From IMG/VR virus record IMGVR_UViG_2531839661_000011: a DNA stretch of 15,995 nucleotides; one strand, written 5' to 3'. A program made the position numbers. Positions 3,001 through 6,000 of this stretch are shown here, piece after piece. Source of the stretch: a virus (lineage: Duplodnaviria; Heunggongvirae; Uroviricota; Caudoviricetes). Position 1 is the first letter of the stretch; every line of letters begins with the position of its first letter.

Positions 3001-6000
3001 CAGGCTATCACGAAAGCCGTGACGGACTCAAAGCACTGGGCGCAGAACGTCACCATTACATTAATCTGGCACGCGCAGAGAACCGTGTTACAGGTCTGGT
3101 GGCTGGAGAACGCAGCACAGCCAGCGAGCAACAGTTAGGCTTACTGATAGTCATGCAGAAAATCGAGCAGGCAGCATTTGACGAGGCGATACAGAGCGGC
3201 ATGACACCGACCGAAGCGGTGCGGGAGGTTGCCTGCCGCATGGAGACGTTCGCCAGCCTGATGACGTCAGCGCCGTCTCTGGGGGTGAATCATGCGTAAT
3301 TATGTTATCCCTCCCAATCATGAAGGCGGTTATATTTATGTGGCGCTTTCTGACATTGGATTAGTTAAGGTTGGAAAAACCAGAAATGTTTCAGCCAGAA
3401 TGAAACAGCTATCCACTGGTAGCGGCATAGTAATCACTAAAGTCGAGGTGTTAGGGCCATTTGTTAATTACGGACAAGTCGAATTAGCTATTCATGCAAA
3501 ACTTACATCAGAACGCCGTTCTGGTGAGTGGTTTTCTGCTGATTTTGATACGGTTAAAGCAATTGCTATCGATACATCAGGAATAGGTACTCCTGGTGCG
3601 GAATTAGTTAACAACGATGCTTATCGCTACGAACGCGTGTTTTTATGGTTTAGTGCGCATGAGGAACAAATTAAATACGAACAAGCACTTTGCGAAATAT
3701 TATCTGATACGGCAATTAACTTTCTTAAGGAGTATGGCACAGCTTGCGCCCCATATGTTGCTTTATGTATTCACACAATGGGGGGTGTAACTCTTCAACA
3801 GGGACAAAAGGCCTACTCTGTATATCCTTGTGGATTTAAAGAGTCCACATTGGATCAGTTAAGGGAGGATTGGAATAATTTTGCAGATAAAGATATTTTC
3901 GAAGACTCTGATTTTGATGATTTTCTTATAGACATAAGTGATAAAGATAAATTTAAGTCAGAAGCTGAGGAATGGAGAACTGATGCAATAAATAATCTTT
4001 TCACAGAACTCACCGATGATTACCAGCGCTGGCTGGCCCGTCGCATGGGAGAGCATGAACATGCCTGACATCCTCAAACCTGCTGTCCGGTACATCGACA
4101 CGGCGGATAAGTTCGCACTACTGAACATCAACCATGCTGATTACATGCGCCATATCGTGAGCCATTTCGCCGCTGAGCGCATGAAACACGTTAAGCATTA
4201 TCAGAAGGAGGCTTTATCAAATTATCGCACTGGTGGCCCTGTACGGCGCGAATATCCGCATGATGCAGGAATGGCAGGCAAAACAAAGGCGACCACGAAA
4301 GGGTCGCCAGTGGAGATAAAGGAAATCAAGCGCATCACCAACTATGCCATGAGTGTAGCTGGTGGACAATGCTATCAGCCAGGCGGTCGGTTTTTAGTGG
4401 CTTTTAACCGCCGTGGGTATTTCTCGACAAAATCTTCAAGGGCAAATTTTTTAGCTTTTGTATGTGATGCCTTTGACTCGTCATCACATGTTTTTCCGCG
4501 CCTTATCCTGTTTTCAATAAAACGGGAGGCGGCCTTTTTATTCAGCGATGAATCAATGGGGCTGCTCCCTGTTTGCTGCTCGACAATGGCATCCATGAGT
4601 AGTTGGTGTTGTAGTTGTCGTAAAAATTTCTCATCTTCTGGTGGTAAATCCATACTTATTTCCTGTACAGCGGAGCGACGCAGCACCTCACACCACGGCG
4701 CTGATGGTTGTTATTCGTTTTATGGAGTCAAAGAAGCAAAAGCGGATCGCTATCGGTTTTTAGGCGAGATTAATCGCCGTGGGTATTTGTCCAGAAATGC
4801 CTCAAGCGCAAATCGTTTTGGTCTGGTGAGAGGAGAGGGATTAAGCAAAGACTCACGTTCCAGGCGTACTTTTTCGCGCTGGCGCTCAAGTATGGATAAT
4901 GCGATTTCCTGTAATTCTTCATTTGTCATTGTCTGTACCCGTAAAGCGGTGCGCTGTAGTACCTCATATCACAGCGCAGGTATTTTTTATGGTTGTAATT
5001 TGCGTGATGATTCAGGTCGCTTTGCGACATACTGCATAAACATAAATAACGTGATGTTATTATGTGCTTTCAAAGAAAACGCAGGTATTTTTCGCACAAA
5101 CTTCTCTCGCAACACATCCGACCACTTAAGCAAAAAAGCGGCATATACTGAGGCTATCCCTTATAAAACGGGGATCGGGCGTAGGAACCCGTTTAACTGT
5201 GAGGCGACAAATGACGCCAGAAGCGTCTTTTTTTCTGCCAGCGATTTACGCCATATCAATGGTGTTGTGCATTGTGCGTACCCGTGCACCATCCAGTCAT
5301 TTCACGAGTTGCATTTTGCACAGCGCCACCAGCAAACAATGGTGATGCTGGCGGGGCTACCGAAAGGTAGGCCGGAGTCCTTACAGTCCGGTATTCCTAC
5401 CCCCGCCAGTGTCACCGCCCTGTGTGAGCGTAGGAACTCCAGCGGTGACGTTATTTATCACTGTAAGGAGGCTGCCACTATGGCTACTACCCCTACCCTG
5501 GTACATTCTCAAACCGCCTTCATCTGGCGCTTTATCACTGTTGGCACGTCAGAACGTCAAATCATCCACGTAACCGCCTGGACGGAACTCGAAGCGCGTA
5601 ACCGTTGCCCGTCAGGTTGCGTTGCTGTATTCGCCGCCCGTATCCGTCAGGAGGCATCACATGGATAAAAACATGTTGATCGCCTCTTCTTTCGGGCTGT
5701 ATGATGCCGGAGTCGCCCACATGGCGACCGGGTTTAGCAGCCTGAATAAATTGGCGGACAGCCGCCCATATCCGATAAGCGGTTTTTTTGTGTCCGTAAA
5801 CCTACCCATACCCGCATTATGGCGGGGCGTAACGGGGGAGCCTTTGCGCTCGCTGGTTTCCCAATTTGCCAGTCTGCTAACCCTGTTACGTCTCGCCACC
5901 ACGTTTAGCAGCGTAGTAGCGAGACTCCTTAACATTAAATTGGGAGCCTTTCACATGGCTGTATCCGCACGCCCTTACTTTGTCTGGCGCTTTATGCAGT

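Follow-up and report, generated by a model that had tools for sequence, protein, structure and literature searches.

The closest described counterpart of the element analysed here is the eta/kil region of phage P4. In the P4 summary contained in Mageeney et al. 2023 (PMC10111431), which cites Forti et al., eta holds an internal constitutive promoter together with CI and seqA, and interactions between CI and seqA terminate its transcript, which is processed to CI RNA. The same summary presents Kil as a nested, truncated form of Eta, attributes full-length Eta only to the upstream late promoter, in translational coupling with the alpA homologue, and states that 'Eta translation prevents termination' (PMC10111431). 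The element in question is a long open reading frame (ORF) on the + strand (4016..5668, 550 aa) of IMGVR_UViG_2531839661_000011, an IMG/VR record of a Caudoviricetes virus whose 15,995 nt are referred to below as the window. Comparison with relatives shows that this frame is kept open by selection, while its + strand product is not under protein-level selection. The frame is probably a satellite's extended version of the P4 eta-type leader ORF, kept open for translation-dependent anti-termination. For P4 itself, Forti and colleagues are said to have found in 1999 that nonsense codons in eta led to premature termination of late-promoter transcripts, and that suppression restored read-through.

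The long frame and the genes and RNAs that it crosses are located as follows (SD, Shine-Dalgarno sequence).

3992-5665, + strand: stop-to-stop open frame of 558 codons by frame translation, flanked by TAA 3989 and TAA 5666 (5668 with this TAA included).
4061..5668, + strand: eta-like ORF of 535 aa, homologue of the P4 eta ORF (199 aa), with Pfam Phage_ASH and NCBIfam Icd-like matches.
4375..4653, - strand: small gene A of 92 aa (ORF 4375..4686), with SD AGGA and the conserved C-terminal motif FALEDF..KYPRRL, wobble-aligned with the + frame.
4750..4929, - strand: small gene B of 59 aa, a C-terminal paralogue of A in the same register.
5156..5233, + strand: isrK/seqA-like element no. 1, at relaxed Rfam threshold (49.6 bits for a gathering score of 50).
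5335..5422, + strand: C4/CI-type immunity RNA no. 1 (Rfam C4, 69 bits for a gathering score of 45).
5480..5668, + strand: nested icd/kil-like gene of 62 aa, in frame with the eta-like ORF, with its own SD AAGGAGG (5465-5471) and its own ATG at 5480.

The translation is as the original prediction, made from the sequence alone, had described it, and in-frame ATGs are found at 4016, 4055 and 4061. Within 4016-5668, stops number 21 and 36 in the remaining + frames, and 31, 19 and 28 in those of the minus strand. With the local base composition (0.048 stop per codon), the probability of 551 open codons is 1.8e-12, the same order of magnitude as the value of ~1e-12 first proposed. The 315 codons that are left after removal of the two antisense genes and of the nested icd gene are also devoid of stops (P = 2.6e-8 with the 0.054 stops per codon of the other two + frames), and they were open in none of 20000 shuffles. 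It had also been claimed that most of the translation is not protein-like, that the frame passes antisense through two better-supported minus-strand genes and that it crosses a structured RNA before entering an independently initiated icd-like ORF. All of this was borne out; the two minus-strand ORFs lie opposite 555 nt of the frame, and the C4 RNA and the separate start signals of icd are present.

A frame of 262-674 codons is present in all 13 related islands, in which the number of antisense genes varies from none (L033) or one (the O157:H7 type) to two (the window), three or four, with eight distinct kinds in total. Ahead of icd, the icd frame has 461-612 open codons in ten related islands that carry antisense genes, where the other frames have 4-89; in three exceptions a frame of 299-518 codons starts at the upstream end and reaches or enters the C4/icd region, and the cassette-less island L033 has an eta-like ORF of 262 aa. 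Database proteins that unite Ash and Icd in one ORF number 189. Seven different distances (550, 499, 463, 505, 481, 400 and 424 nt), all congruent to 1 mod 3, separate the icd ATG from the proximal antisense gene; they come from five or more immunity types, among which the single-stranded segments of C4 and both target copies co-vary. The P1-type phages RCS47 and D6 possess the isrK-like element, C4 and icd, yet no frame that crosses C4 stays open beyond 46 codons, so that the presence of these RNAs does not by itself impose openness. In a decayed island remnant located next to fbpC, the long frame contains stops while the cassette ORFs are intact. The alignment of homologous islands that had been proposed as a check thus finds the open frame conserved across arrangements, and of the two readings offered at the time, the comparative evidence favours the second, namely a constraint such as translation-coupled read-through.

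The antisense genes bear on this constraint as well. All eight kinds are wobble-aligned with the + frame, and none contains a stop in it. In this register, a + strand stop needs a Tyr codon after a pyrimidine-ending codon, or a His or Gln codon after a T-ending codon, and it is the sole register where synonymous choice can generally avoid stops, the other two being far less permissive or impossible. Under a null model with a fixed minus-strand protein and codons sampled according to the usage of the island, each antisense gene has an exact probability of 0.08-0.28 of containing no + strand stop, and the product over the eight kinds is ~4e-7 (10.9 stops expected, 0 observed). Applied to ten control genes of the window, the null predicts 70.4 stops for 74 observed, so that the model can be regarded as sound. 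Antisense genes are shown to be tolerated only when wobble-aligned, with synonymous codons that avoid stops on the + strand.

Codon-position periodicity could not assign the coding strand in 4375-4929, where both frames share their wobble positions, and discordant synonymous/nonsynonymous changes were therefore used instead. In the cassette region, 127 changes are synonymous only in the minus frame and 59 only in the + frame, for 482 and 597 opportunities respectively; in the less dependent pairs the counts are 34 and 13 (binomial P = 1e-4). The minus-strand small genes are under protein-level selection. A profile search retrieved 31 clusters of such FALEDF-type small proteins, all from E. coli and all annotated as 'hypothetical', which diverge to ~40% identity with the motif kept. 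In the window, the C-termini of A and B share FALE[DA]F..KYPRRL and correspond to a DNA repeat (4387-4461 / 4753-4827). Two of the antisense gene kinds resemble ribbon-helix-helix regulators by eye, one of them with a weak Arc match (E = 0.023); apart from this match, searches of Pfam, PHROGs, NCBIfam, PADLOC and PDB returned no credible family for the antisense small genes. The remnant next to fbpC (L010-L015), which has two or three intact FALEDF-type ORFs and no icd, occurs in many E. coli genomes, and one of its small proteins is listed in 351 blocks of the genome collection.

Upstream of the immunity RNAs, three further features bear on the origin of the frame.

4118..4255, + strand: Rha-like fragment (ORF residues 20-65 aligned with residues 94-139 of the island's Rha).
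4278..4308, - strand: terminator-like hairpin (4308-4288) with T-run, directly downstream of the small genes.
4335..5110, 776 nt, no strand assigned: antisense-gene module, with 47 nt in its place in the cassette-less L033.

The original prediction had considered that a genuine gene was fused or disrupted by the insertion of a module at 4.37-5.47 kb. An insertion is indeed involved, but its boundaries are 4335-5110 and it neither fused nor disrupted a gene. Disruption was rejected as an explanation on the ground that the length difference with L033 is 729 = 3 x 243 nt and that the frame is kept in every arrangement. The first ~100 codons had likewise been regarded as a real gene that had lost its stop, a view that the substitution pattern does not sustain. 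In the 5' segment (4061-4333, ~90 codons), the differences between relatives are spread evenly over codon positions. Its ratio of nonsynonymous to synonymous substitution rates (dN/dS) takes values of 1.38 and 0.86 for the two pairs that differ by the largest number of substitutions, and of 0.49 and 4.9 against two closer relatives with few synonymous changes; for the same genome pairs, the integrase, the primase and the small downstream genes give 0.05-0.21, and icd 0.31-0.37. The segment moreover contains the terminator of the minus-strand genes (4288-4308). The sharing of a PVRREY hexapeptide between the Rha gene (nt 2979-2996) and the long frame (nt 4238-4255), on the other hand, had been correctly noticed and is part of a likeness that reaches 46 residues (37% identity, E = 4e-7 against the island's Rha). 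Because of this likeness, the 5' segment is probably derived from Rha, and it looks like a fragment that is now required only to stay open.

At its other end, the frame owes its family matches to a short region. Phage_ASH (PF10554) matches aa 377-498 of the 550-aa ORF (nt 5144-5509, E = 1.2e-18), a stretch that takes in the C4 RNA, the initial codons of icd and the greater part of the isrK-like element, and the NCBIfam Icd-like model (NF033153) matches aa 502-545 (nt 5519-5650). In the Pfam and NCBIfam searches, aa 1-376 have no family match, everything being confined to the last ~170 residues; the Icd-like model does not cover the 550-aa ORF as annotated, and the Icd-like gene is the nested 62-aa ORF. 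The C4 stretch is constrained as RNA, since 17 of its 28 stem pairs show compensatory, two-sided changes among nine C4 copies. The 'Ash' peptide motifs coincide with parts of the RNAs: PYKTGxG with the first isrK hairpin, ASFFVS with the terminator T-run, MVGCMG and NPVQSTA with the C4 outer stem. Compensatory pair changes in the C4 hairpins alter the encoded 'Ash' peptide. The Phage_ASH family may be largely the translation of non-coding RNA elements contained in a frame that is kept open.

The comparison with P4 also relies on the signals at both ends of the frame.

4047-4068, + strand: coupled start of the eta-like ORF, with SD GGGAGAG (4047-4053) and ATG 4061-4063 overlapping the TGA of the GIY-YIG gene (4066-4068).
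5144..5149, + strand: inferred -10 (TATACT) of the internal constitutive promoter, at the same place relative to the isrK-like element as TATAGT in the P4 record.
5430..5436 and 5460..5469, + strand: downstream C4 target sites, the second overlapping the icd SD (5465-5471).

The coupling of ATG 4061 to the stop of the T5orf172 (GIY-YIG) gene had been predicted, and the overlap is confirmed; the same start junction (GGGAGAnCnTGAACATGCCTGA) is found in relatives behind three different upstream genes, GIY-YIG, AntA and Rha. A sigma-70 scan of 4930-5150 gave no convincing promoter, and the -10 is placed by analogy with P4. An extended -10 at 5055-5063 was dropped, that stretch being absent from many relatives whereas TATACT is conserved. 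A hairpin (5213-5227) and, after it, a T7 run (5228-5234) close the isrK-like element, which includes an upstream copy of the C4 target (5181-5187). The C4 loop at 5378-5387 is complementary to 5460-5469, across the icd SD, and the single-stranded segment 5394-5400 is complementary both to 5430-5436 and to 5181-5187. Weak c4 target-site matches were also obtained at relaxed Rfam threshold, and the icd region is C-rich and G-poor.

At the sequence level, the window ORF has every feature of P4 eta. In both, a long ORF starts beside an upstream stop, holds a promoter, a seqA (isrK-like) element and a CI (C4-type) RNA, and has a nested kil/icd gene as its last part; the RNA has a target at the ribosome-binding site of that gene. 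In P4, the frame has 217 open codons and begins with three consecutive ATGs (locus L004, 1239-1245) at the stop of the alpA homologue orf88 (which ends at 1242), and the 199-aa ORF ends with the kil peptide MATTLTPSHPEF... The sequence likeness itself extends through Phage_ASH and through P4 8347-8505, a segment once annotated as an 'ash'/'cI' ORF of 137 aa that is included in the only similar phage DNA found by blastn for the immunity part; this likeness may reside in the RNA elements and not in the peptide. The window ORF differs from eta by its length (535 aa instead of 199), by its additional Rha-derived 5' fragment and by its position behind a GIY-YIG gene (AntA or Rha in relatives), P4 eta following the alpA homologue directly. 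It also runs antisense through two real genes (0-4 in relatives) with constrained codon choice, and another eta/C4/icd module stands in tandem behind it. The original prediction had not recognised the eta/kil arrangement, and its interpretation as a whole is supported in part.

Other known systems share fewer of these properties. The immI region of P1/P7 (c4 RNA - icd - ant; Rfam RF01695, RF03163) has the same RNA family, the two-site target logic, an Icd-like gene and a downstream C4 target site over the icd ribosome-binding site; the eta-like frame is seen in P4 and satellites and not in the two P1-type phages RCS47 and D6. In the isrK-orf45-anrP system of Gifsy-1 (Salmonella), a small RNA activates the translation of an otherwise inactive long transcript (PMC4825925). 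An isrK-type element likewise lies there upstream of a translated leader, and RNA pairing and leader ORF translation decide downstream expression; no long ORF crosses antisense genes, however, and the window's isrK match stays just under the Rfam threshold. The phage-inducible chromosomal islands (PICIs) EcCIMP1 and EcCIEDL933 (PMC11773190) are comparable in content, with an integrase, a helper-phage-induced AlpA, an antirepressor, an 'Ash family protein', a primase and PerC, but in the publications on them the 'Ash family protein' figures as a normal conserved coding sequence, and the searchable PICI papers do not describe embedded RNAs, antisense genes or a constraint on an open frame. Ordinary shadow ORFs, finally, occupy the same antisense register, whose shared wobble positions are the most tolerant of a second open frame. 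They end with the gene that casts them and are not conserved across genes, spacers and promoters, whereas the window frame spans several genes plus 315 non-genic codons and is conserved.

On the model of P4, the following sequence of events can be proposed. In the repressed state, the internal promoter (~5115-5150) would produce a short transcript from which C4 RNA is processed. As C4 would pair with the sites in the isrK-like element and with the icd ribosome-binding site, icd would stay untranslated and transcription would end at the isrK terminator and/or in a Rho-dependent manner. Upon induction, AlpA would turn on the upstream operon, and ribosomes handed along by the 8-nt overlaps between its genes would enter at ATG 4061. 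By crossing the isrK terminator, C4 and its targets, these ribosomes would block RNA folding and pairing as well as Rho loading, and polymerase would thereby reach icd, the second module and the replication genes. The peptide would be irrelevant and only the uninterrupted frame would matter. A stop anywhere in the 1.6 kb would let the ribosome fall off, with polar effects on the operon, which would account for the constraint on the frame and on the antisense genes embedded in it.

This proposal has to be weighed against three others, of which the most conventional is that of a real, functional protein of 535-550 aa, either 'Ash/Icd-like' or part of the Bro network, as in RefSeq, with the minus ORFs as its shadow ORFs. 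PGAP indeed annotates the whole ORF as an Icd-like protein (WP_231318854.1), with a 502-aa equivalent in L006, and the ORF matches both Phage_ASH, which is counted among Bro-network domains (PMC10111431), and NCBIfam Icd. These matches are however limited to its distal end, the conserved 'Ash' columns are RNA hairpins and a T-run, and the compensatory changes in C4 alter the peptide. The region varies by whole antisense cassettes, from 0 to 4 per island, which would be intolerable for a folded protein; substitutions favour the minus-frame proteins, a diverged family with a conserved motif, and the dN/dS of the 5' segment is ~1. The annotations do not agree with one another either, identical DNA being annotated in three ways. 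In RefSeq (NZ_CP028122, NZ_AP042695 and NZ_CP027587 differ over 4016-5668), the same DNA is labelled as one 550-aa 'Icd-like protein' or as a 258-aa one plus a minus-strand hypothetical protein, and a 94%-identical relative appears as an 'ash family protein' pseudogene plus a separate 57-aa Icd-like protein. A functional protein of this size is thus very unlikely. Rather improbable, though the less so of the two, is the idea that the frame is open and translated for some other purpose, either to shield the operon mRNA from antisense transcripts and RNases or to produce an N-terminally extended Icd/Kil cell-division inhibitor with attenuated or targeted action. The evidence for selection on openness is itself silent on why openness matters, and the frame is fused in register with icd in most islands, as the seven spacers indicate. 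Against this stand the O157:H7, L016 and L020 types, where the frame is not fused to icd and nevertheless extends over 299-518 codons, which argues that a fusion protein is not the point. Cassette-less islands and P4 also have the frame, with no antisense genes that would call for shielding, and the P4 summary in PMC10111431 ascribes the effect to termination.

Chance combined with hitch-hiking, by which a shadow ORF would have been joined by accident to conserved RNA genes and icd among close relatives, is scarcely credible. The wobble-aligned antisense register is admittedly the most permissive one, with a probability of 0.09-0.31 that a given small gene leaves it open, and many loci are more than 90% identical in parts. 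The calibrated null nonetheless gives a minute probability for eight unrelated or strongly diverged antisense genes without a stop, and so does the composition of the other + frames for the non-genic codons. All seven spacer lengths preserve the frame, at least five immunity types stay open despite many substitutions and indels, and the same RNAs occur in P1-type phages without an open frame, while the decayed remnant has gained stops. Several points must nevertheless be counted against translation-dependent anti-termination by a P4 eta-type leader. The related loci all come from E. coli and are partly close, so that locus counts are not independent, and the antisense-cassette statistic rests on eight gene kinds; a scan of genome contigs with the Ash and Icd alignment yielded 3 loci only, from other species, its patterns being too specific, and sampling outside E. 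coli is thin. The three variants that are out of frame with icd end 51 nt inside icd (O157:H7 type), inside C4 (L016) or just before icd (L020); islands can thus do without complete read-through into icd. A ribosome would also need to cover ~1.4 kb, part of it opposite genes that may be convergently transcribed. Finally, the 5' segment shows 17 nonsynonymous changes for 1 synonymous when compared with the O157:H7-type island (L008), an excess more lopsided than neutrality predicts, which may reflect patchy recombination or some additional constraint. With these points taken into account, a P4 eta-type leader kept open for anti-termination is still regarded as the probable explanation.

A broader proposition, for which the arguments on either side are evenly balanced, is that a frame selected only for its translatability can exceed 1.5 kb and forbid stop-creating synonymous codons in as many as four unrelated genes lying opposite to it. 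The satellites' leader ORF would in that case be a place of insertion for accessory or regulatory genes, admitting them only if they are antisense and wobble-aligned. The searchable literature contains no description of such a constraint for P4-type immunity regions or PICIs, and the maintenance of an eta-type frame across several genuine antisense genes, whose codon choice it shapes, is apparently new. It is a clean natural case in which openness itself is selected, measurable as a constraint on the codon choice of opposite-strand genes, and it would explain as a regulatory device an inconsistently annotated 'protein' of hundreds of E. coli genomes. The analysis suggests that these PICI-type islands of E. 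coli share the P4 eta mechanism, in which translation counteracts termination within an RNA immunity switch. It also calls for caution with the Pfam family Phage_ASH, which may largely reflect conserved RNA elements, and it draws attention to uncharacterised small antisense genes, some of them ribbon-helix-helix-like, at the control point of the island.

Chromosomal islands of several E. coli strains (O43 RM10042, O145 RM9154 and others) match the window at 100% identity; matching E. coli records number 818. Its gene order is yicC / integrase - hypothetical - AlpA-type helix-turn-helix protein - Rha - GIY-YIG/T5orf172 - long ORF - second 'Icd-like' ORF, followed by three small ORFs - primase - SSB - ProQ/FinO - PerC. 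The island is a Gram-negative phage satellite of PICI organisation; in the PICIs EcCIMP1 and EcCIEDL933, AlpA is the helper-induced master activator and the 'Ash family protein' is among the conserved genes (PMC11773190). Along the + strand, 8-nt start/stop overlaps (ATGnnnTRA), each with a Shine-Dalgarno sequence, join Rha to the GIY-YIG gene (3292/3299), the latter to the eta-like ORF (4061/4068), this ORF to the second eta-like ORF (5661/5668) and the second to the next ORF (6118/6125), and one 4-nt overlap (6929/6932) belongs to the same chain. This succession of overlaps from Rha to the primase suggests a continuous translational coupling along the operon.

The second module comprises three features.

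5661..6125, + strand: second, shorter eta-like ORF of 154 aa, whose ATG overlaps the stop of the first, with a second icd-like end.
5712..5789, + strand: isrK-like element no. 2, at relaxed Rfam threshold.
5815..5903, + strand: C4 RNA no. 2 (Rfam, 73.3 bits).

The loops of the second C4 pair with 5734-5740, 5748-5754, 5905-5911 and 5937-5945. Since these targets differ from those of module 1, the island seems to hold two immunity specificities. RefSeq describes the second eta-like ORF as 'frameshifted' although it is open. Across islands (L003, L006, L008, L009, L017, L019 and L021), the C4 single-stranded segment and both target copies change together (positions 5394-5400, 5181-5187 and 5430-5436 in the window), the types observed being GTAGGAA, GTGAGAA, TTACCAC, TTGGCC and TTAGCAC; this is the pattern expected of distinct immunity specificities. 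The T-run of the isrK terminator is T7 in most islands, T9 in the O157:H7 type and T8 in L016, and it is this difference in length that takes the long frame out of register with icd in the latter two. In L020 (reverse complement, ~2637-2831), isrK and C4 are absent, and a short promoter region with two copies of GTGGGCCACACCT is found instead, adjoining a minus-strand gene that resembles a ribbon-helix-helix regulator; the long frame ends just before icd. A switch of protein type seems to have taken the place of the RNA immunity elements in this island.

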